From sequence record ON548432.1: a DNA stretch of 44,240 nucleotides. The stretch is one strand, 5' to 3'. Below are positions 11,540 to 41,195 of this stretch, in pieces. Within the stretch, counting starts at the first letter, position 1, and each line of letters starts with the position of its first letter. The notes beneath the pieces were generated by a model. The model searched no databases. It was given only the letters and a program-made list of their open reading frames with translations, and had not been told where the DNA came from. The position numbers were made by a program, and so were the translations under genes. This stretch comes from Escherichia phage vB_EcoS_SCS92.

Positions 11540-12043
11540 TCAACCTTTCACCGCGCGCCCGATAGCCTCTGCCTCTTGCCACGGTTTACCGTCGAACAGC
11601 GCCAGACGACCGGCAGTACGGCGGCGCAGACCAAGTAACGGTCTGCCGTTCTGGTTGATGAACAGTGTCAGCTTAGCCCGCAGCGTCTCGATATCACCAG
11701 AACGCAGTGCCTTACCTGTACCAGTAGCAGCCGCAATCACGCCGGCGCCAGCGTTATATACCAGGTCACACACCGCATCGAACTGAGCCTGTGTTAATGA
11801 ATGGTGTGCTGCTGCGTCAACCGCAGCTACGGCCTTAGCCATGTCGCGATTCAGTAACAGGAGTCCTTGCCCCGGGGTGATGGTCTGCCCAGCCTTAACG
11901 TCTGGCCCGTAGTGACCGTAGCCGATAGTCAGGTACTTCTCGTTCGGCGTAGCACGATACGCAGTACCTCGGAACCCCTCAAACGCAGCGGTGAAATGCA
12001 ACCCATTATCTGAAATGTTTCGAGACACGCTTATGTCCCCCAT
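11540..12043 (-). CDS. endolysin, GH24 lysozyme-like
   Basis: 167 aa. FEGFRGTAYRATPNEKYLTIGYGH matches the catalytic region of T4/lambda-type lysozymes. Sits downstream of the holin genes. Confidence 0.7.
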   Translation of the reverse strand: MGDISVSRNISDNGLHFTAAFEGFRGTAYRATPNEKYLTIGYGHYGPDVKAGQTITPGQGLLLLNRDMAKAVAAVDAAAHHSLTQAQFDAVCDLVYNAGAGVIAAATGTGKALRSGDIETLRAKLTLFINQNGRPLLGLRRRTAGRLALFDGKPWQEAEAIGRAVKG

Positions 12044-12278
12044 ACGACAGCCACGCCTGGCGAATCTGGCGAAGCGCGACTAATGTGATTAATGTCTCAG
12101 GCAGCGTTGGCGACATGCTGCCCTGTAACAGGTGGATACATCCGGCGGCGCAGACAATAGCAGTCAGAATATAAAGCACACGGCCAAATAATCCGTCATC
12201 CACGCTGGGGTGATATACATTAAACAGCGATGTGCCTCCGATTGCCAGCATACCGCCGAACCAGAATAATTCATTCAT
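12006..12278 (-). CDS. holin-like / antiholin membrane protein
   Basis: 90 aa with two hydrophobic segments, between the holin and endolysin genes. Confidence 0.45.
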   Translation of the reverse strand: MNELFWFGGMLAIGGTSLFNVYHPSVDDGLFGRVLYILTAIVCAAGCIHLLQGSMSPTLPETLITLVALRQIRQAWLSYGGHKRVSKHFR

Positions 12279-12579
12279 CTGTGCCTCCTCGACGTGCGAT
12301 GTATTCTCCGGCGACGATACCGGAGAGACGGGAATAGATGGGCATCCAGAGAATTGCGATGATGAATCCGAGGCCAGCTATCTCGCGCTCTCCGGTAATA
12401 CCGAACCATTGAGCCGCGAGAGGTGCGCCGAATACGGCGCAAGTGAAGCCAGTTGCAATAAAGCAGAAGCCGTCGATGGGGCCAGAAATAACGGACTTAT
12501 GTTGTCGTAGTCCGATTACCCCTCCGGCTAGCGCGGCAGCGAGAAGCCAGCCTGTCACTGTTTCAGTAAATTTATCCAA
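12271..12579 (-). CDS. holin
   Basis: 102 aa with three predicted transmembrane segments and a charged C-terminus, immediately upstream of the lysis genes. Confidence 0.55.
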   Translation of the reverse strand: MDKFTETVTGWLLAAALAGGVIGLRQHKSVISGPIDGFCFIATGFTCAVFGAPLAAQWFGITGEREIAGLGFIIAILWMPIYSRLSGIVAGEYIARRGGTDE

Positions 12580-12638
12580 GATGAATCCTCCAGGTGCGTA
12601 TTAAGTATGCAGTAACTGGAGGATAGCACGGTTAGGAA

Positions 12639-13076
12639 TTATCTTAATAACGGTTTGGTAATAATCTTGCCGCCGGTGTTGGTGTCGAACTTAGATGCAA
12701 CTGCTACGCCACCATGTGCTGAATACCCACACTCCATAGCCGCCAGTGCATATGACGAGCCAGACCCTACGGCGGCAAAGCCGTCTGCAATTGGAATAAC
12801 AGAACTTAGAGTGCAATCCCAAGATTTGTAGAACTCCACCTTATACAACGTTTCAATGTCTTTAACCCATACCAAAGCAGAGAAATCAAAATCATAATGC
12901 TTAGGCACTAAAATACTATCGTCCTTCACTAAAAGGATACCAGCTTCAGCATTACCCGCTACACCGATAACAGCAAACTCGTTCTCATATATCTTGGTAT
13001 CTGTGTTGTAGATGTGGTCCCCGGCTACTCGGGTGTCACAGGCCATTGTCTTTCCGTCAAACGCGATAGTAGTCAT
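12639..13076 (-). CDS. HslV-like (proteasome-type Ntn-hydrolase) peptidase
   Basis: 145 aa. Starts MTTIA (the Thr nucleophile position of HslV), and has the GSGSSYALAA region aligning with HslV GSGGPYAQAA and a C-terminal DTNTGG region. Confidence 0.6.
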   Translation of the reverse strand: MTTIAFDGKTMACDTRVAGDHIYNTDTKIYENEFAVIGVAGNAEAGILLVKDDSILVPKHYDFDFSALVWVKDIETLYKVEFYKSWDCTLSSVIPIADGFAAVGSGSSYALAAMECGYSAHGGVAVASKFDTNTGGKIITKPLLR

Positions 13077-13390
13077 TTATGTCTCCAGATGTATTGTCGT
13101 CTCTGTGGTTTCGTCGGAATATCATCGTACCCCAGCGATTTCCAGTAATTAAATAGCCGGTTCGCGATAGCTGCGCGTTCCTTTGTTTTAAACTCACCGA
13201 GATTCACGGCCTTTCCGTTCTGGAATCCACAGGCGTGGATAGCTTTACGCCGTTCTTGTATCTCTGGGTACAGCACGTTACGGCGACGCTTGTGTATACG
13301 TGTCTTCGCTCTCGGTGACAGCGGCGCAAGGCCGCTTCGTTTCAGGATGTCAGTTGCAAGGCTCATTGCGATACTTCTCCAGAATCTCAC
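13073..13390 (-). CDS. hypothetical basic protein
   Basis: Track ORF of 105 aa; the real start may be the internal M (MSLATDIL, near 13366). Lys/Arg-rich. Confidence 0.35.
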   Translation of the reverse strand: MRFWRSIAMSLATDILKRSGLAPLSPRAKTRIHKRRRNVLYPEIQERRKAIHACGFQNGKAVNLGEFKTKERAAIANRLFNYWKSLGYDDIPTKPQRRQYIWRHK

Positions 13391-13601
13391 CTACTCTATC
13401 GTATGCATATTCGTCCGGTATTACGCCGTAACCCAGGTCGTTGTCCAGCTTAACTAACATATCGAGTATATCGTTGAGTTCGGCTTCGAGTTTCGCGTAG
13501 TCTTCGTAACTTACATAACGCCCTTCATGAGAGTCCGGAACAGGCGTTATATCTACCACGCCACTCGCGCAGTCTTCTGTTAAATCGTAGCGTATAACCA
13601 T
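13350..13601 (-). CDS. paralogue C of a triplicated small-protein family
   Basis: Starts MVIRYDL with a GGAGG Shine-Dalgarno and a TGATG overlap with paralogue B. The longer track ORF (to 13646) is an upstream extension inside the 94-bp repeat. Confidence 0.45.
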   Translation of the reverse strand: MVIRYDLTEDCASGVVDITPVPDSHEGRYVSYEDYAKLEAELNDILDMLVKLDNDLGYGVIPDEYAYDRVGEILEKYRNEPCN

Positions 13602-13690
13602 CACTCCACCCCCTCCACATGTGTAACTGACCCGCAGTTCGCGCACTCGACGTAATCAGGGTACTGGTCTTTGTATTTCTGTAGCTCGGC
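13597..13690. repeat. 94-bp direct repeat, copy 1 (about 91% identical to 13866-13959)
   Basis: Read directly. Spans the junction of paralogues C and B. Confidence 0.7.
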
Positions 13691-13870
13691 GTTTACTTCT
13701 GCCAGTCTCGACACAAGCCCTTCTATTTCCTTGTCGGCGTCGGCTAGACGTTCCTGGTAATAGTCGTCCAGTTCCTTATAGCTGTCGTACTCTACATAAT
13801 CGCCGTATGCGTACTCAGCCATCTCAGGCTCTGGCAGGCCCCACGCTTTTACCTCATATCTCTGTACCAT
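13601..13870 (-). CDS. paralogue B of a triplicated small-protein family
   Basis: Starts MVQRYEV with a TAATG overlap with paralogue A. C-terminus AELQKYKDQYPDYVECANCGSVTHVEGVE is shared with paralogue A. Confidence 0.45.
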   Translation of the reverse strand: MVQRYEVKAWGLPEPEMAEYAYGDYVEYDSYKELDDYYQERLADADKEIEGLVSRLAEVNAELQKYKDQYPDYVECANCGSVTHVEGVE

Positions 13871-13959
13871 TACTCCACCCCTCCCACATGTGTAACTGAC
13901 CCACAGTTCGCGCACTCGACGTAATCCGGGAACTGGTCCTTGTATTTCTGTAACTCGGC
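13866..13959. repeat. 94-bp direct repeat, copy 2
   Basis: Read directly. Spans the junction of paralogues B and A. Confidence 0.7.
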
Positions 13960-14073
13960 TTCAACTTCCAACAGCTTTAGGTCAAGATTCTGGTAGTCCT
14001 CAAACTTAACCCACTTCCCGTGGCGGTCAATGAAATGGTTGTCGGACCCATACTTAGAATATCTCTGTACCAT
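13870..14073 (-). CDS. paralogue A of a triplicated small-protein family
   Basis: Starts MVQRYSKYG at ATG 14073 with an AGGAG Shine-Dalgarno just after the upstream stop. C-terminus ELQKYKDQFPDYVECANCGSVTHVGGVE. Confidence 0.45.
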   Translation of the reverse strand: MVQRYSKYGSDNHFIDRHGKWVKFEDYQNLDLKLLEVEAELQKYKDQFPDYVECANCGSVTHVGGVE

Positions 14074-14074
14074 G

Positions 14075-14278
14075 TTATTTCTCCTGTTTTCCAAGTCGCT
14101 TAGGTGAGCAGATAGCGCGTACCTCTGAATCGTTGGGCTTGTCACCCTGAAACAGAAAGTGCGCGTTCTCGGCGGCGCGTGCCGCTGACTGGCACGCCTC
14201 CATCGAGTAAAACGTTTCTGATGCCGCCAGGTGCATCTGGCCTGCGGACAGTACCCAGATAAATAAGATGCTGGTCAT
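14075..14278 (-). CDS. small protein with N-terminal signal peptide
   Basis: 67 aa. N-terminus MTSILFIWVLSAGQMHLAAS is hydrophobic with an AxA-like cleavage site; two Cys in the mature part. Confidence 0.4.
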   Translation of the reverse strand: MTSILFIWVLSAGQMHLAASETFYSMEACQSAARAAENAHFLFQGDKPNDSEVRAICSPKRLGKQEK

Positions 14279-14748
14279 TTGATTTTCCCGTGGTTGTCGT
14301 GAAACCCATATTTGTTCTCAGCGTCGGCCCTCGCTGCTCTTGCGGCAGAAAGGTCGTCGAAATATCCTAAATGTACATTTTTACCGTTAACCTTTATGGT
14401 CCCTTTCCATTTACCCGCACGCTGGAACCAATACACTCCAGTAACACCTGACCGGTTGTTGGCGGCTAATTTTGTGTTTCTATGGTTTTCGGATGCTGTT
14501 ACTTTCCTAAGATTGCACAAACGATTGTCACTACGGTCGTGATTTATGTGGTCTATTTGCTCCCCTGGGTGAAGTAAATCGTCGGGGTTAAACATGTCCC
14601 ATATTATTCGATGTGCGCGGTACTGCCTCTTTTCGACCTTCAACACAACATAGCCATCCCTATTCTTACACGTTACTTTTGCTGAGGTCTTCTTCCATGA
14701 AAGAATGCCGGTAGTATGGTCATAATCGAATAGTGTGTGCCATTTCAT
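14275..14748 (-). CDS. HNH homing endonuclease with AP2-type DNA-binding domain
   Basis: HNH motif IDHINHDRSDNRLCNLRKVTASENHRN and an AP2-like C-terminus (SGVTGVYWFQRAGKWKGTIKVNGKNVHLGYFDD...KYGFHDNHG). Confidence 0.8.
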   Translation of the reverse strand: MKWHTLFDYDHTTGILSWKKTSAKVTCKNRDGYVVLKVEKRQYRAHRIIWDMFNPDDLLHPGEQIDHINHDRSDNRLCNLRKVTASENHRNTKLAANNRSGVTGVYWFQRAGKWKGTIKVNGKNVHLGYFDDLSAARAARADAENKYGFHDNHGKIK

Positions 14749-15212
14749 TTGTTGTCAGCGTCCCATTTTCGGCAACCAGATTGCTCCCACCCGTACCTGC
14801 CCTTGCAGATAAGTTTGTACGACTCCACGTCACCTGTGGCCTCAGCCAGCTGTTTTGTCAGGCCCTTAACTTGCCCTGTCAGGTGCGATATGTGCTCAGA
14901 TTTCTTAATGTTGTCTTCCTGTAACTCGGCCACCAGCGACGAAGCATCACGTAACTGGTTTTTAAGTGACTGCACCTCATGCGCCAGGTCTTCGCACTGG
15001 CTGTTATTTACCTGCTGCCGTAAACTGTCTTTCAGCGCTCGTATTTCGTCATCCTTACCGGCGATATGCTGCTGTAGGTTGTGAATTACCTGCTTGACCT
15101 CATCAAGGTCGGATATCCGCACAGACACATTGAAAGATGTGACATCTTTCTTATTTACCTGCTGCCGTAGTTGGTCAATCAGGTACTCGAATACTTCGTT
15201 TTTGTTACTCAT
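14745..15212 (-). CDS. hypothetical coiled-coil protein
   Basis: 155 aa, Gln/Leu/Lys-rich with heptad-like repeats. Confidence 0.45.
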   Translation of the reverse strand: MSNKNEVFEYLIDQLRQQVNKKDVTSFNVSVRISDLDEVKQVIHNLQQHIAGKDDEIRALKDSLRQQVNNSQCEDLAHEVQSLKNQLRDASSLVAELQEDNIKKSEHISHLTGQVKGLTKQLAEATGDVESYKLICKGRYGWEQSGCRKWDADNK

Positions 15213-15397
15213 ACTACGTCTCCTACTAACCCAACCTTCATGACGCCGCGTTCACCTTTCTTGCCTGCACGAAGCCACTCACGCGCAACTTTCTCATCAG
15301 TGAACACAAATTTCGGTACGTGCTTTCCGTCGGGGGCGATAACCCACGCCGACCATACCGGGGTAACTTTAATCAAATGCTCGTTTTTAGTATTCAT
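15209..15397 (-). CDS. hypothetical protein
   Basis: Track ORF begins at a GTG at 15406; ATG at 15397 (MNTKNEHL) is more likely. Confidence 0.4.
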   Translation of the reverse strand: MNTKNEHLIKVTPVWSAWVIAPDGKHVPKFVFTDEKVAREWLRAGKKGERGVMKVGLVGDVV

Positions 15398-15515
15398 ATT
15401 CTTCACTCACTCCGTTATAGACGCCGTTGTAATCTCCGTCGCAGATGAACGGGTAGAGCATATCTTCATACTCGTCCTGCAACTCGCCTAAAGTCACTTC
15501 GCTATAATCTTTCAT
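15387..15515 (-). CDS. hypothetical 42-aa acidic protein
   Basis: ORF below the track threshold. GAGGAG Shine-Dalgarno; first gene after the promoter at 15547-15575. Confidence 0.3.
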   Translation of the reverse strand: MKDYSEVTLGELQDEYEDMLYPFICDGDYNGVYNGVSEEYEY

Positions 15516-15546
15516 CCTCTGTCTCTCCTCTCGTTTGTGTAAATGA

Positions 15547-15575
15547 ATAGTAGCCTATTCTATATTAGTGTGCAA
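15547..15575 (-). promoter_or_regulatory. sigma70-like promoter (TTGCAC-N17-TACTAT class) with AATAG-N4-CTATT palindrome
   Basis: Minus-strand reading gives CTTGCAC, a 17-bp spacer and TACTAT, about 30 bp upstream of the 15515 ATG. Confidence 0.5.
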
Positions 15576-15654
15576 GTAAATTTTATTGGTGTTTGTATTG
15601 TTGCGTCTCCTGCAATAGTCGCTTCGATTGTTGCGTTTGGTGAAATAGAACAAA

Positions 15655-15689
15655 AATGAGAAAAATGATACGCTGCTGTGTAGCAGCGT
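15655..15689 (-). terminator. rho-independent terminator
   Basis: ACGCTGCT-gtgt-AGCAGCGT stem followed on the minus strand by ATCATTTTTCTCATTTTTG. Confidence 0.55.
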
Positions 15690-15722
15690 AAGTCACTCAG
15701 TAAAATCCCAAACTATTGAACA

Positions 15723-15923
15723 TCACACTTCTGGCGGCTCGGGTAACGGCATCCAGTGCGTCACGTACTTATCGTAGTGATTCCAGAAAGGCTTTCTCCC
15801 GTCATCAGGAACGATGTAATAATCGTGTTGAACTGCGTTATTTAACGTTTCATACACCAGGAACTCTTTATCCGTACACCCATTACCCGGCAGCATCTCA
15901 CTACACTTAATCCACTCACCCAT
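15723..15923 (-). CDS. hypothetical protein
   Basis: 66-aa track ORF with a GAGGTG Shine-Dalgarno. Confidence 0.45.
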   Translation of the reverse strand: MGEWIKCSEMLPGNGCTDKEFLVYETLNNAVQHDYYIVPDDGRKPFWNHYDKYVTHWMPLPEPPEV

Positions 15924-16071
15924 ACCTCACACCTCTTTCAATCAAGGATTGCACACCAGCTTTCCACGCCCGCCATGCGAGACGCGTCTTAACGTTCAGG
16001 TACTCTTTCTTCGAACCCTTGTTAACCGGCAGACCCTCGACGACGGCCCACCGTTCGAATGCTTCTCTCAT
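15916..16071 (-). CDS. hypothetical 51-aa protein
   Basis: ORF below the track threshold; ATGA overlaps at both ends suggest translational coupling. Confidence 0.3.
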   Translation of the reverse strand: MREAFERWAVVEGLPVNKGSKKEYLNVKTRLAWRAWKAGVQSLIERGVRYG

Positions 16072-20801: not shown

Positions 20802-21074
20802 ATGATTTACCAACTCTACCGAGGTATTGACCGACGGGATAACACAGAGGCGTTGTGGCTGTTGCGTGCGCCGTCCGGCGCGCACCAGATGGAAGAGATG
20901 GCCTACCTCGGCAAAGTACCGAAGCCGAAAGATATAGGCCGTCACCTGTCGCAGATTAAGCGCACGACATTCGTTAAAAGTGACTTTTATGTCTTCGAGT
21001 CGATGTATAGCTGGGCGATGCATTGTGACCACAAGACACGACATTTAATTGACCAGTGGGAGGTCAGGGTATGA
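20802..21074 (+). CDS. hypothetical protein
   Basis: 90-aa track ORF with a Shine-Dalgarno-like AGAGGG. Confidence 0.45.
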   Translation: MIYQLYRGIDRRDNTEALWLLRAPSGAHQMEEMAYLGKVPKPKDIGRHLSQIKRTTFVKSDFYVFESMYSWAMHCDHKTRHLIDQWEVRV

Positions 21075-22312
21075 TTCTAAAAGAACGAGGCGGCAATAAT
21101 GATGTACACGCCTTACTGTCACCGTCAGGCGCTAAAAAGTGGCTAGTCTGCGCTGCGTCGCTGGCGTGTGAAAAAGATATCCCTAACACGTCGGGTAAAG
21201 CCGCTGTATTAGGAACCGCCTGCCACACCATAGCTGAGGTCCATCTCAATGCCTATATACGCGGCACTGCGTTGCCGTTGGAGCGTGAAGTCGGCGCTTA
21301 CGTACTGGATGAAGGCAAAGGTCAGATTAAGGCGCTAATCAGCCCGATGAAAGGCGCGGTACTGATTACGGCGGACATGATTGAGCAGGTGCGCAAGTAC
21401 ACCGACTACTGCAAAGCGATTATAGACGTAGCGACTTACGCCAAGCTGGAAATGCGTGTTAATCTTACTGAGGTATTGCATCCGGGGTATGAAGGCGTTG
21501 AGACGTTCGGAACTGCTGACCTTGTTGCCATACAGGAACTGGCTAACACCGACGAACACATGCTTATCATCTGCGACCTGAAAACCGGGCGGCATCGTGT
21601 CGAAGCGAAAGAAAACAAGCAGCTTATGCTTTATGCTCTCGGCGTTTATCGCCGACTCAAGAGACGGTATAGCATAACAACCGTTCGACTGGTCATCTTC
21701 CAGCCGTACGCTGGCGGTGCATCGGAGTGGGACATCTCGGTTGAAGGTCTGGAACTGTTCGCTAAGTTTGCACAGAAACGGGCGCTGTTGGCTCTTGATG
21801 CCTATTTCCGGGGTAAAAAGAACCTGAAAGCGTCGGACTTCAAGCCGTCGGTAGATGGTTGTCAGTGGTGTCGGTTCTCTGAACAATGCGCAGCGCGTAC
21901 AAAAACCGTTAACGCGGGGCTGGCGGAAGAACTGGAGGACGACTTTGCACTTGAGCTTACGCCAGAGCAACTCGTAGCTGAGTATGAGAAGTTGCCGTTG
22001 TTGCGCCAGCACATCGACAAGGTTGAGAAAGCTATGGCTGCTACGTTACATTCCGGTAAGAAAGTGCCGGGTTACAACTTGGTTGAAGGACGCCCGGGTA
22101 ATCGTGCGTGGAAAGATACCGATGCAGTATCAGAAGTCTACGGTGACAAGCTGACAAAAGGAGTTCTTATGACACCGACCGAAGCTGTTAAAGTCGTACC
22201 GGAAGAAGAACTGAAAGACTTCATTACACGTAAGCCTGGGGCGCCATGCGTCGCAACGGCAGACGACAAACGTCCTGAGTGGAATCAGGTGACCGAGGAG
22301 GATTTAGAATGA
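21071..22312 (+). CDS. PD-(D/E)xK exonuclease with Cas4-like Cys cluster (DUF2800-like)
   Basis: D...ICDLKTG nuclease motif and C-terminal CQWCRFSEQC cysteine cluster. Likely ATG at 21071 with a GGAGG Shine-Dalgarno. C-terminus QVTEEDLE. Confidence 0.65.
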   Translation: MILKERGGNNDVHALLSPSGAKKWLVCAASLACEKDIPNTSGKAAVLGTACHTIAEVHLNAYIRGTALPLEREVGAYVLDEGKGQIKALISPMKGAVLITADMIEQVRKYTDYCKAIIDVATYAKLEMRVNLTEVLHPGYEGVETFGTADLVAIQELANTDEHMLIICDLKTGRHRVEAKENKQLMLYALGVYRRLKRRYSITTVRLVIFQPYAGGASEWDISVEGLELFAKFAQKRALLALDAYFRGKKNLKASDFKPSVDGCQWCRFSEQCAARTKTVNAGLAEELEDDFALELTPEQLVAEYEKLPLLRQHIDKVEKAMAATLHSGKKVPGYNLVEGRPGNRAWKDTDAVSEVYGDKLTKGVLMTPTEAVKVVPEEELKDFITRKPGAPCVATADDKRPEWNQVTEEDLE

Positions 22313-22585: not shown

Positions 22586-23212
22586 ATGGGTATTAAACTG
22601 AATCTGCGTAAAGTAAACACTGCATGGGTTAACGTATTCGAACGTGCTGCCGACTCTGAGGACGAAAACCGGTCAATTATTAAGGGTAAATACAGCGTTA
22701 CGTTCATCATGCAGCCTGACCACCCTCAAATCGACGCGCTTTATGACACCGTTTACGCTGGAGTTGAACAAGCAATCGGTGCCGCCGCTGCCGAGAAATG
22801 GATGAAAGCCAACTACGGTGTAGACCACCACGCGGACAAGTGCGTGATACGTGACCTGGCAATGCGAGACAATCCTATTGAGGATTTTGAAGAAGGTCTG
22901 TATTTCCGGGCCACTACACCGTCACAGCCGGTGATTATGACATCGGCTAAAGGTGAAAAACAAACAGAGCCTGATTTCAACATCGACGGCGAACAGAATG
23001 AAGGCGAGCAGGTATATAGCGGATGTGTCGCAAACGTATCTGTAGAGTTATGGTGCAGCCAAAGATTGAAAAACCTGTGCGCTACCATCCTGGCGATCAA
23101 GTATATGGGTGAAGGTAAAGCGTTCGGCGGCTCCAGTGTAGTAGCGAGCACTGACGACCTGGAAGACGACGAAGAAGATGAAGCACCGCGTCGCGAACGT
23201 CGCCGCCGTTAA
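22586..23212 (+). CDS. ssDNA-binding protein (T7 gp2.5-like / DUF2815-like), putative
   Basis: N-terminal KLNLRKVNTAWVNVFE...KGKYSVTF pattern, acidic DDLEDDEEDE stretch near the C-terminus, and position between the nuclease and the polymerase. Confidence 0.5.
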   Translation: MGIKLNLRKVNTAWVNVFERAADSEDENRSIIKGKYSVTFIMQPDHPQIDALYDTVYAGVEQAIGAAAAEKWMKANYGVDHHADKCVIRDLAMRDNPIEDFEEGLYFRATTPSQPVIMTSAKGEKQTEPDFNIDGEQNEGEQVYSGCVANVSVELWCSQRLKNLCATILAIKYMGEGKAFGGSSVVASTDDLEDDEEDEAPRRERRRR

Positions 23213-28519: not shown

Positions 28520-28653
28520 ACATCATAGCCCCGATTCCAGCATTGCAAAAACGTATCAAGGAACTCGAAGAGGAGGTTCTACGCCTACGGCAACAGAGAG
28601 ATGCCGCTAATGCGCAACTGGCGTTTGTGCTGGAGAAGTTATCAGAAGAGTAG
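28516..28653 (+). CDS. hypothetical 45-aa coiled-coil peptide
   Basis: ORF below the track threshold; ATGA overlap with the helicase stop. Confidence 0.3.
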   Translation: MNIIAPIPALQKRIKELEEEVLRLRQQRDAANAQLAFVLEKLSEE

Positions 28654-38961: not shown

Positions 38962-39288
38962 ATGCGTAAATTAGTATTAGCTCTGGGGTTTATGTCTTTT
39001 GCTACTTTTGGAGCCCCGTGCGAACAGGTATTTAGTGAATCCGTTCTTATGACTTCTGGTGTGCTTGATAAAGCCGACCTTACTATTGTAAAGGCATTTA
39101 AAGACTCTACAGTTCGCGAGTGTGAGGCTGCCGTAGTGGTTGGTAAATCGGGCCTGCCTCCGCAAGCCGTAACATACTCGGTAATACGTTCTGTAGAGAA
39201 AAACGGAGACGCGTTTTACAGCCTACTGACAGCCACCCGCCTGCAAATGGTGATGACCGGGTGGGCGATAGGCGCGGAAAGTAAATAG
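38962..39288 (+). CDS. small secreted/periplasmic protein with signal peptide (candidate superinfection-exclusion factor)
   Basis: 108 aa. N-terminus MRKLVLALGFMSFATFGAP is a signal peptide. Opposite strand to the tail genes, with its own early-type promoter. Confidence 0.5.
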   Translation: MRKLVLALGFMSFATFGAPCEQVFSESVLMTSGVLDKADLTIVKAFKDSTVRECEAAVVVGKSGLPPQAVTYSVIRSVEKNGDAFYSLLTATRLQMVMTGWAIGAESK

Positions 39289-39353
39289 TCGCCTTTATTT
39301 AAAGGAATGCACTGTGGTTAAATAGGACAAATCCTAAACACGAGGAAGTAAGC

Positions 39354-40484
39354 ATGGCCCGGAAGAAAATAACCGACGAACAGTTGCAGGAAGAATTGAA
39401 CGCCGGGATGAAGAATATCGATATCGCCCGTAAATACGGAATCTCAGACCGCGTTATTCGTATCCGTAAAGCGAAGCTGGCTAAGAAAGGTGTAGGCCAC
39501 GGGCGTGACGTTAGCCACCTTGTCCCAGACGGCTACAAGATTAAAGGGACGTCGTCCCTGGTGGACGAGTTCGGCAACACTAAGTTGCAATGGGTTAAGA
39601 CCGACGCTGATGCCGAACGTCAGGTTGAATTGATGAAAGCCGTAATAGAGGGCATGAAGTCAGAGATTACGCCCGTTGCGCCTGTTAAACCGGCACGAGC
39701 CAAACGTGACGATAAACTACTCAATCTTTACACGGTATCTGATTTCCATCTCGGTATGCTGGCATGGGCCGATGAGAGCGGCGACGACTGGGACATGAAG
39801 ATTGCAGAAGACCTGTTCTCTCGGTGGTTCGACGCGGCGTTTCAGAAAGCACCGGATGCAGGAACAGGAGTTATTAACCTGCTTGGCGACCTTGCACACT
39901 TCGATAGTCTGGACGCCGTTACCCCGGCAAGTGGTCATGTTCTCGATGCGGACACGCGCTACCAGAAACTGGTTCGCTACATGATTCGTATGGTCCGCCG
40001 TGTTGTCGATATGGCCCTTGTTAAGCATAAAAATGTTCGCTTGCTTATCGTACAAGGGAACCACGACGAAAGCGGAATGATTTGGTTAGCTGAGATGTTC
40101 AGTACGCTGTACGACAATGAGCCTCGTGTGTTCGTCGATACGTCGCCGGATGTTTACAAGATGGTGCAACACGGCAAAACGACGCTGTTCTTTACACACG
40201 GGCATAAATGCCGGTTTGAGGTGGTCGAACCCATTATGATAGCTAAGTTCAGAAAAGCATTTGGCGAAAGCGAGTACAGTTACGCACATGTCGGTCATCT
40301 CCACCATCAAAAGATTGTAGAAAGTAGGAATATGGTAGTGGAACAACATCGCACTCTCGCGGCGAAAGATGCATATGCTTCCCGCGGTGGGTGGATGTCT
40401 AAGAGGTCCGCTAATGTCATAACCTATAGTTCAGAGTTCGGGGAAGTAGGTAGGCTTTCGATCTCACCGGAGATGCTAAGATGA
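39354..40484 (+). CDS. HTH-fused metallophosphoesterase (calcineurin-like)
   Basis: 376 aa. N-terminal HTH-like region (NIDIARKYGISDRVIRIRKAKL) and C-terminal metallophosphoesterase motifs (DFHLG, LLGDLAHFD, VQGNHDE, FTHGH, HVGHLHH). Confidence 0.65.
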   Translation: MARKKITDEQLQEELNAGMKNIDIARKYGISDRVIRIRKAKLAKKGVGHGRDVSHLVPDGYKIKGTSSLVDEFGNTKLQWVKTDADAERQVELMKAVIEGMKSEITPVAPVKPARAKRDDKLLNLYTVSDFHLGMLAWADESGDDWDMKIAEDLFSRWFDAAFQKAPDAGTGVINLLGDLAHFDSLDAVTPASGHVLDADTRYQKLVRYMIRMVRRVVDMALVKHKNVRLLIVQGNHDESGMIWLAEMFSTLYDNEPRVFVDTSPDVYKMVQHGKTTLFFTHGHKCRFEVVEPIMIAKFRKAFGESEYSYAHVGHLHHQKIVESRNMVVEQHRTLAAKDAYASRGGWMSKRSANVITYSSEFGEVGRLSISPEMLR

Positions 40485-40951
40485 AGTACCTTGATGTTTC
40501 AAAACAATTTAAATACTGCCCTGATACTGGGCAGGTTACCAGGATATCTACTGGTGCTGAGGTTGGTACGGTTGGTGTAAGAGGCTATCTGTGCTGCGGT
40601 ATGGGTGGCAAAACAGTGTATGTCCACCGCATAGCATGGTGTCTTTATAATAAATGTGACTTAGACAGGAAAACTCAAATAGACCACATAAACCATAACA
40701 GGCTAGACAATAGAATAGAAAATCTACGCGCCACCGACAATACAGGGAACAGTAAAAATAAAACTATGAGAAAGATAAATAAATCCGGGGCTACAGGTGT
40801 AAGTTTCCACAAAGCCGCGGGTAAGTGGCGCGCGTTTATAAAAGTTAACTACAAACAAGTGCATTTAGGGCTTTACGACGATTTTGATGTAGCGGTTGCC
40901 GCGCGTAAAGCCGCCGAGAGTAAATACGGTTTCCATGAAAACCATGAGTAG
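40481..40951 (+). CDS. HNH homing endonuclease with AP2-type DNA-binding domain (second copy)
   Basis: IDHINHNRLDNRIENLR HNH motif and AP2-like C-terminus (SGATGVSFHKAAGKWRAFIKVNYKQVHLGLYDD...KYGFHENHE). Paralogous to the gene at 14275-14748. Confidence 0.8.
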   Translation: MKYLDVSKQFKYCPDTGQVTRISTGAEVGTVGVRGYLCCGMGGKTVYVHRIAWCLYNKCDLDRKTQIDHINHNRLDNRIENLRATDNTGNSKNKTMRKINKSGATGVSFHKAAGKWRAFIKVNYKQVHLGLYDDFDVAVAARKAAESKYGFHENHE

Positions 40952-40964
40952 GGGAGATTGATTT

Positions 40965-41195
40965 ATGACTTCAAAATACAACCGCACAATGACAAATACT
41001 CACGGCAGCACTATGACAGTAGACGTTTATGATGTGCTCCGCGCCTTCGATATACGCGACCCGGCGCTACAGCACGCATTGAAGAAGCTATTGTGCATGG
41101 GCTTGCGCGGACACAAGGACACCGGAACCGACTTAGCGGAAGCAATTGAAAGTCTGGAGAAGTTACGGGAATACCGAAGCAATATTGATGAGTAA
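40965..41195 (+). CDS. hypothetical conserved phage protein
   Basis: 76 aa. VDVYDVLRAFDIRDPALQHALKKLLCMGLRGHKD resembles a recurrent small phage protein family seen from memory. Confidence 0.45.
   Translation: MTSKYNRTMTNTHGSTMTVDVYDVLRAFDIRDPALQHALKKLLCMGLRGHKDTGTDLAEAIESLEKLREYRSNIDE

Follow-up and report, generated by a model that had tools for sequence, protein, structure and literature searches.

A three-gene array in Escherichia phage NTEC3, probably assembled from pre-existing alleles by recombination within coding blocks

Three small genes joined by a direct repeat

The window analysed here, 44,240 nucleotides (nt) long, is the complete genome of Escherichia phage NTEC3 (OK539620.1 / NC_073318.1; Guernseyvirinae, Kagunavirus; sewage, India). 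We focus on three consecutive minus-strand genes, A, B and C (Table 1), which lie between two conserved genes (this position is called the slot below) and within a long minus-strand run of small genes leading to HslV-like peptidase, lysis and terminase genes. A and B open with the same start block, gene C with a variant of it, ATGGTTATACGCTAC, and MV[QIVH]RY opens nearly every gene found in this slot among relatives. The final 29 residues are common to A and B with two differences (AELQKYKDQ[F/Y]PDYVECANCGSVTHV[G/E]GVE). Consecutive genes overlap by 1 nt, in TAATG for the stop of A and the start of B and in TGATG for the stop of B and the start of C, with GGAGG located 9–10 nt upstream of the ATG at both junctions; gene C runs 17 nt into the gene that follows it. 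The deposited NTEC3 record has no annotation for gene B, which is annotated in the near-identical phage 590B.

The two junctions lie in a direct repeat, which the initial annotation of this DNA had given as 94 bp long and about 91% identical. Within those limits 86 of the 94 positions are identical (91.5%), and a repeat search extends the similarity to 103 nt (92/103, 89%). This is the longest direct repeat of the 44-kb genome; as the runner-up measures only 40 nt, its length is far beyond chance. The copies differ by six synonymous (stop codon counted) and three non-synonymous codon changes, giving a non-synonymous divergence (dN) of 0.054 and a synonymous divergence (dS) of 0.39, which argues that the block is under purifying selection as protein and that the copies are old. 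The longest stretch over which they agree without a mismatch is 23 nt. HVEGVE represents the last six codons of the module (VEGVE: GTG GAG GGG GTG GAG); these contain the Shine–Dalgarno sequence for the gene that follows, whose ATG overlaps the stop codon, so that the block forms a portable translational-coupling junction. The repeat is the conserved type-1 C-terminal module of a protein family (see below) plus a gene junction. The three minus-strand genes with their MV(Q/I)RY starts, the tail shared by A and B, and a repeat that holds a stop codon, a Shine–Dalgarno sequence, the next start and conserved C-terminal coding sequence were all reported in the initial annotation, and all are found as described.

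Table 1. Positions in the window of the array, its repeats and the other features discussed
Feature	Position	Strand	Description
Gene A	13870-14073	-	67 amino acids (aa), start MVQRY; short form: N-module SKYGSDNHFIDRHGKWVKFEDY + type-1 C-terminal module with CANCG
Gene B	13601-13870	-	89 aa, start MVQRY; long form: N-module EVKAWGLPEPEMAEYAYGDYVEYD + coiled-coil insert + type-1 C-terminal module
Gene C	13350-13601	-	83 aa, start MVIRY; family N-module + different (type-3) C-terminal module ...LGYGVIPDEYAYDRVGEILEKY
Start block ATGGTACAGAGATAT (MVQRY)	14059-14073 (A) and 13856-13870 (B)	-	Exact 15-nt repeat
Repeat copy 2	13866-13968	-	C-terminal module of A, Shine–Dalgarno inside HVGGVE codons, TAATG overlap, first bases of B
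Repeat copy 1	13597-13699	-	C-terminal module of B, Shine–Dalgarno inside HVEGVE codons, TGATG overlap, first bases of C
Putative imported C cassette tract	13312-13633	-	322 nt, 0 mismatches to metagenome contigs L045/L046
Putative crossover interval, A-B type to X-C type	13629-13633 (most parsimonious); 13599-13633 (outer bound)		Three-way alignment
Upstream slot flank	14075-14278	-	67 aa, phrog_3766, N-terminus signal-peptide-like
Downstream slot flank	13073-13366	-	97 aa, phrog_9632
HslV-like peptidase	12639-13076	-	Next after the downstream flank; then two holins, endolysin, terminase genes
HNH homing endonuclease (HNH_3 + AP2-like)	14275-14748	-	200 bp upstream of the array
DUF2800 / PD-(D/E)XK nuclease	21071-22312	+	Candidate phage recombination function
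Enc34-type single-stranded DNA-binding protein	22586-23212	+	Candidate phage recombination function

A modular protein family

All three genes match PHROG 29624 (function unknown; a 60-position profile), each over a different part of it: A over its full length (positions 1–60/60, E 9.2e-23), B over positions 26–60, corresponding to the C-terminal half of the protein (E 3.6e-19), and C over the central stretch at positions 15–39 only (E 3.2e-5). A profile made from 46 N-terminal alignment columns (the N-module) recognizes A (E 1e-14), B (E 5e-19) and C (E 1e-11); this is the only one of the family modules that C has in common, and a search with it over the six-frame open reading frames (ORFs) of the genome found no family members besides A, B and C. 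That the three genes are paralogues, as first proposed, is thus borne out by the profile searches. Their N-terminal halves are not alignable with one another.

Members of the family share a common layout: MV[QIVH]RY is followed by a hypervariable stretch of 8–25 residues (at least 18 recognizable types), then by a central G-x-[WY]-V-x-Y-E-D-Y-x-x-L-E block, an optional coiled-coil insert and one of at least five C-terminal modules. The type-1 module, AELQKYKDQFPDYVECANCGSVTHVEGVE, ends A and B, and the type-3 module (...LGYGVIPDEYAYDRVGEILEKY) ends C. Across 30 diverse members C76, C79 and G80 are invariant and H84 is nearly so, which suggests selection at the protein level. An AlphaFold2 model of B (30-sequence alignment, mean predicted local distance difference test score (pLDDT) of 81) has strands at residues 5–9 and 16–19, a helix at 28–69 and a C-terminal hairpin with CxxC; this hairpin is modelled at a pLDDT of 65–74 and offers only three candidate metal ligands per chain.

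A profile search of 5.8 billion proteins collected 503 clusters (at 90% identity), nearly all on ∼44-kb contigs, and an exhaustive HMMER search of 1.84 billion representatives of 50% identity clusters collected only 38 clusters, among them no annotated distant relative. From these searches the family appears narrow and nearly confined to Kagunavirus-like phages, yet internally very diverse. Other comparisons returned little: the model of B had no match at E < 5 in the PDB and matched only family members in BFVD (both by Foldseek), a profile search of PDB sequences gave nothing below E 0.07, and scanning A, B, C and the surrounding genes against Pfam gave none above threshold for the three proteins (coiled-coil noise and sub-threshold Lar matches). 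In PHROGs A, B and C match only unknown-function families, and a literature search on Kagunavirus and NTEC3 gave only genome announcements, which do not cover this locus. One distant relative (P0142) lies in an accessory island among the tail genes of another 45-kb phage (locus L048); another is on a 1.1-kb contig, which is uninformative.

Modules are found in many combinations. The N-module of A occurs elsewhere with long type-1 and type-2-like tails, that of B with type-2 tails, and that of C with short and long type-1 tails and with another one. When 168 sequences were roughly classified, 16 of the 18 N-module types were followed by at least two types of downstream module, and N- and C-terminal modules reassort freely among the more than 500 relatives. 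In locus L025 the first gene has a type-4 body and ends with HVEGVE directly before the next MVQRY gene; the HVEGVE tail goes along with the junction, not with the protein body.

We also observed relatives in which the type-1 gene has lost its stop codon and reads on into a downstream module, giving a fused protein (L020, L021; P0002, P0017, P0026, P0049, P0121). The added module can be a Cys-rich zinc ribbon (SGCRKED..EC.H.W...C..CG), with which the coiled-coil protein also ends in L019, or a domain of ∼60 aa ending with IIAYRVVG. In a third kind of fusion (metagenomic protein P0131), a type-1 tail is joined to the N-terminus of the upstream coiled-coil protein. In NTEC3 a 20-nt stretch (14911–14930) inside the gene for the 155-aa coiled-coil protein resembles the AELQKYK part of the repeat. 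Taken together, the P0131 fusion and this resemblance suggest that the short similarity also serves as a crossover site.

Slot contents in related phages

The 103-nt block is present in 100 GenBank phage records, mostly at 90–95% identity, and about 95 other genomes have a single copy. Among these 100 records, two copies per genome are found only in NTEC3 (two records), 590B and XY2. Seven surplus block matches are accounted for by the two NTEC3 records and 590B (one each), XY2 (two, one of which comes from a terminal redundancy) and a 164-kb composite record (two). The XY2 record (MN927226.1; loci L006 and L032) has a terminal redundancy of ∼127 nt and is cut inside a tandem of type-1 genes; its true order is upstream flank, a 60-aa type-1 gene, B and downstream flank.

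We compared 28 loci that contain both flanking genes. The slot holds one gene in 10 of these loci, two genes in 15 and three genes in the remaining three (NTEC3, 590B and L017). The third gene of L017 is not a family member; within this sample three stacked family members are therefore seen only in the lineage of NTEC3 and 590B, both of which come from Indian sewage. The flanking genes are 90–100% identical in most loci (92–100% for the upstream flank gene, which drops to 78% in two), and the slot contents are often unalignable. Nearly every slot examined retains at least one type-1 gene. We regard the slot as an accessory site that is hypervariable and lies between two conserved genes.

Relative to NTEC3, phage 590B (L002) has a 741-nt in-frame deletion (14242–14982) between GCCAG microhomologies. 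Lost with it are the C-terminal half of the coiled-coil protein of 155 aa (14745–15212), the HNH endonuclease gene in its entirety and 14 codons at the start of the upstream flank gene; a fusion ORF of 125 aa is left.

Alleles in other genomes and a crossover at the B/C junction

The alleles of the array are not confined to it. Repeat copy 2 is 100% identical to the block of phage Bas72 (L003) and copy 1 is 99% identical to that of an IMG/VR contig (L007), and the two copies rank with the most divergent block pairs found anywhere. Protein A is found with 100% identity in Bas72, L016, L034, L038 and L040. Protein B is found unchanged in at least 24 public contigs and in five different arrangements: after the exact A (L034, L038, L040) or a two-residue variant of A (L036), behind another type-1 gene, of 60 aa (L037, XY2), on its own behind the upstream flank (L042), after another gene and before unrelated genes (L039), and after a DUF551 gene (L033). 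Protein C is rarer, with exact matches in five contigs (NTEC3, 590B, a 590B-like short contig, L045 and L046); in L045 and L046 it is preceded by a different 64-aa type-1 gene, here called X. With these identical proteins and more than 500 clusters of relatives, the conservation in relatives, whose lack the initial annotation had named as a refutation, is evident.

Two kinds of relatives match NTEC3 on the two sides of the B/C junction. Contig L040 aligns to NTEC3 15300–13599 at 97.8% identity, with four mismatches over the upstream flank gene, A and B, and the match ends exactly at the B/C junction. Contigs L045 and L046 are identical to NTEC3 over a tract (Table 1) that spans the end of the type-1 block, the junction, gene C over its full extent and 55 nt at the start of the downstream gene. 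Beyond this tract mismatches to L045/L046 are frequent: 11 in the 66 nt upstream (13634–13699) and 44 in the 294-nt bin 13073–13366, all of them at or below 13311. In a three-way alignment, NTEC3 is of the L040/L038 type upstream of 13634, where it differs from L045 at 11 sites. At 13628 it has the base of L045/L046, from which all eight of the tested metagenome contigs with B and without C differ; the GenBank phage XY2 has the NTEC3 base. Given the informative sites 13634 and 13628, the crossover lies between them, or at most within 13599–13633, and so inside repeat copy 1 either way.

A second exchange is suggested within gene B. Over 14286–13784, a stretch that takes in A and 87 nt at the start of B, Bas72 is 99% identical to NTEC3. 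This N-module of B continues into a type-2 tail in Bas72, which argues that B itself is a chimera, joined at the central block.

Origin of the array

It is likely that the A-B-C array is a stack of pre-existing alleles, built by out-of-register homologous recombination between co-infecting phages at conserved coding blocks and not by local duplication. This estimate covers the genetic architecture and its origin, not the function of the proteins. Four lines of evidence lead to it: the N-terminal halves are unalignable, dS between the repeat copies is 0.39, the alleles occur elsewhere, and the B/C crossover can be mapped. For the B/C junction, a phage of the type upstream flank-A-B-downstream flank would have recombined with one of the type upstream flank-X-C-downstream flank, switching inside repeat copy 1 to yield the NTEC3 order. 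The A-B pair may have arisen by an out-of-register crossover in the shared N-module between a phage with A and a type-2 gene and a phage with B. In the chimeric B, 29 initial codons are those of the type-2 gene that comes second in Bas72-like phages, and a type-1 tail follows from the central YV-x-Y-[ED]-x-Y block onwards. Three blocks would serve as crossover sites: the MVQRY start, the central G-x-[WY]-V-x-Y-E-D-Y block and the C-terminal block with the junction. Through them N-modules, C-modules and whole genes could be swapped, gained or lost in the population with expression signals retained; since the C-terminal block brings a ribosome-binding site and a stop/start overlap for the gene behind it, an imported cassette would arrive ready for expression. 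The nuclease and the single-stranded DNA-binding protein listed in Table 1, or double-strand breaks made by the HNH endonuclease (whose gene is found in some relatives, e.g. L037 and L040, and is absent in most), could promote recombination in the slot.

Several points weigh against assembly from imported alleles as told here. The A-B side of the crossover is bracketed by a single informative site (13628), whose base XY2 also has, and the safe interval is therefore 13599–13633. The sampled ‘parents’ are relatives of the true parents, and below 13312 NTEC3 is close to neither type. The direction of the event is one that we infer: an ancestral triple that gave rise to the doubles is conceivable, although the restriction of the triple to the NTEC3/590B lineage speaks against this.

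The initial annotation had called the cluster recently expanded and recombination-prone. The second part agrees with the reassortment of modules and the mapped crossover in a hypervariable locus. The first part is not borne out: besides the dS of 0.39, the unalignable N-terminal halves and the alleles found elsewhere, both repeat copies resemble their counterparts in other phages more than they resemble one another. A recent duplication or triplication of one gene in situ, followed by divergence (an ‘accordion’ expansion), would explain the tandem head-to-tail order and the MVQRY start and 29-aa tail common to A and B, and amplification of a gene as phage counter-defence is known for T4 tifA (PMC9391042). 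This account is very unlikely, however: the 89% identity covers only 103 nt, with the rest of the genes unalignable, the dS is high, identical A, B and C alleles sit in other arrangements in other genomes, and the B/C junction is a mapped crossover between lineages.

We consider it highly improbable that the repeat acts in cis, as a regulatory RNA, terminator, promoter or site for a site-specific recombinase, and not as a coding module. Its 90–95% DNA identity over about 100 phage genomes, and the fact that it holds the ribosome-binding site of the next gene, could be read in this way. But the changes between the copies are mainly synonymous, no Rfam family matched positions 12000–16000 at a permissive E-value, and RNA folding of the junctions gave no structured element: shuffled controls were more stable (z about +1.8 for the junctions), in keeping with an open translation-initiation region. 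A promoter and terminator scan gave no promoter-like or terminator-like site inside the array (13350–14073), and no integrase or invertase is annotated in the genome. A site-specific cassette system (integron, shufflon or diversity-generating retroelement) was also considered and rejected, by annotation only: the 72-feature record lists no integrase, invertase or reverse transcriptase.

A repeat collapsed or expanded during the NTEC3 assembly can practically be set aside: the XY2 record does have a terminal redundancy in this region, but the NTEC3 copies have 11 differences over their 103 positions and border on unique sequence, the separately deposited 590B genome contains the same triple, an independent short contig (L047) contains the B-C junction, and several Logan/ENA contigs contain the A-B junction.

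Possible functions

What the proteins do can be addressed only tentatively. They may be dimeric, with a small N-terminal beta-sheet carrying the hypervariable hairpin, a long helix and a CxxC...H knuckle, and they may act on host or defence targets, the hairpin setting specificity and the three N-modules widening it; we hold this to be possible, not probable. In our view, their small size, the accessory slot, diversity confined to one hairpin, the conserved tail and the CxxC and His residues would best fit a host-interaction or counter-defence protein. The initial annotation had likened the cluster to diversifying host-interaction gene families, and such a role is plausible. It weighs against this reading that it builds only on hypervariability, small size and the accessory-slot position.

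There is also some chance, which we put below an even one, that the stacking has no adaptive meaning, i.e. that frequent recombination among dispensable ORFan genes leaves it as a transient, neutral by-product and that the proteins play no part in host interaction. Triples are rare (a single lineage) and one-gene slots are common, so that extra copies are dispensable, and Pfam, the PDB and BFVD gave no family, fold or structure match pointing to a function. On the other side, ORFs are intact in more than 500 clusters, the C-terminal module has a dN/dS of about 0.14 (strong purifying selection), the Cys and Gly residues are invariant and the His nearly so, and at least one type-1 gene is kept in nearly every slot examined. 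Intact ORFs, purifying selection and retention in the slot argue that the family is functional, but they do not make the stacking adaptive.

A bolder version of the host-interaction reading is rather unlikely: the family would be a population-wide combinatorial library of counter-defence or host-takeover proteins, with the hairpin as the specificity element, the helix and CxxC tail as a shared dimerization/effector module, and the block kept partly for swapping and stacking. If it were true, NTEC3 would carry three specificities, possibly with A:B heterodimers formed through the shared tail.

It is quite unlikely that the proteins are Lar-like restriction-alleviation proteins, in which a zinc ribbon modulates type I restriction–modification. 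The Pfam family Lar_restr_allev (PF14354) aligns with the CANCG region of A (E 0.11), B (E 0.10) and fused relatives (E 0.009), and phrog_3592 (‘Lar-like restriction alleviation protein’) matches the N-module of the distant relative P0150 (E 5.8e-5) and, more weakly, C (E 0.078). However, the PF14354 scores (13.1 bits for A, 13.3 for B and 16.6–16.7 for the fused relatives) all fall short of the gathering threshold of 28.6 bits, the proteins have a single CxxC knuckle and not a full zinc ribbon, and Foldseek gave nothing significant, with a ‘restriction alleviation protein’ matched only at E 2.3. No hint of Lar similarity reaches a family threshold, and we take the resemblance as a lead only.

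A strongly diversifying two-module family with more than 500 clusters (at 90% identity) provides reasonable candidates for host-interaction and anti-defence screens, in the setting of phages developed for therapy against uropathogenic E. coli.

Other features of the genome

A 349-aa ORF on the minus strand (1446–2495) matches the major head protein family phrog_247 (E 3e-119) and is, like gene B, missing from the NTEC3 record; the annotation is corrected here for both omissions. A 30-nt promoter-like family (TTGACA..TGAATAGT...CTATTATAGT) with an internal palindrome is found upstream of plus-strand gene blocks (16728, 20154, 20198, 22498 and 26058, plus strand), a related 32-nt pair (4097 and 38905, plus strand) precedes two plus-strand accessory genes, and a 40-nt repeat pair resembling a GC-hairpin terminator is found at 28645 and 41187.

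A plus-strand accessory island (38962–41195) lies between the tail chaperone and tail tube genes and encodes a phosphoesterase, a second HNH protein (40481–40951) and a 76-aa ORF (40965–41195, plus strand). The 76-aa ORF matches only the C-terminal third of phrog_2452 and may be a gene fragment. It is the equivalent of this island in the other 45-kb phage (locus L048) that contains P0142, the distant member of the A/B/C family.

Comparison with known systems

In the hyperplastic regions of T4-type phages, conserved expression-signal sequences (PeSLs) flank variable non-essential genes and act as homologous recombination sites at which cassettes are inserted, deleted or replaced between related phages (PMC2839356, Arbiol et al. 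2010; PMC4122927, Comeau et al. 2014). The array resembles these cassettes in having short conserved expression-signal blocks that serve as recombination sites for variable genes. A PeSL, however, is an intergenic sigma-70-like early promoter plus terminator stem-loop, whereas the linker of the array consists of a coding C-terminal module, a Shine–Dalgarno sequence and a stop/start overlap, with no promoter, terminator or stable stem-loop, and exchange also takes place inside genes, at the central block.

The internal-protein genes of T-even phages form a variable cassette locus, and the capsid targeting sequence (CTS) of these proteins is removed by the prohead protease. The internal proteins are highly diverse small proteins with only a short conserved N-terminal peptide, and a review describes them as countering host defences (PMC3012670). 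The A/B/C family is similar in having MVQRY followed by variable bodies, the pentapeptide being known here from sequence alone. The T-even CTS is a prohead packaging signal; the family motif looks structural, as AlphaFold2 puts its last residue at the start of strand 5–9 and an equivalent of the motif is also found internally in distant relatives, in repeated modules (VVKRY in P0151).

Amplification by a gene accordion is known for K3L of poxviruses. Like the accordions of which T4 tifA is an example (PMC9391042), the array consists of tandem small accessory genes that would have formed via recombination between short homologies. Accordions, however, are near-identical copies made in situ with a dosage benefit, and the copies of the array are old divergent alleles that were probably imported from other genomes.

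Mosaicism is general among tailed phages: at the ‘boundary’ or linker sequences of lambdoid phages and in the domain swapping of tail fibres, crossovers at gene or domain boundaries make new combinations. The array does not differ from this in principle, being a compact and densely sampled instance. The locus is a clear, well-sampled case of ordinary phage mosaicism in an uncharacterized family, and it provides a nucleotide-resolved example of lytic phages adding and swapping small accessory genes.

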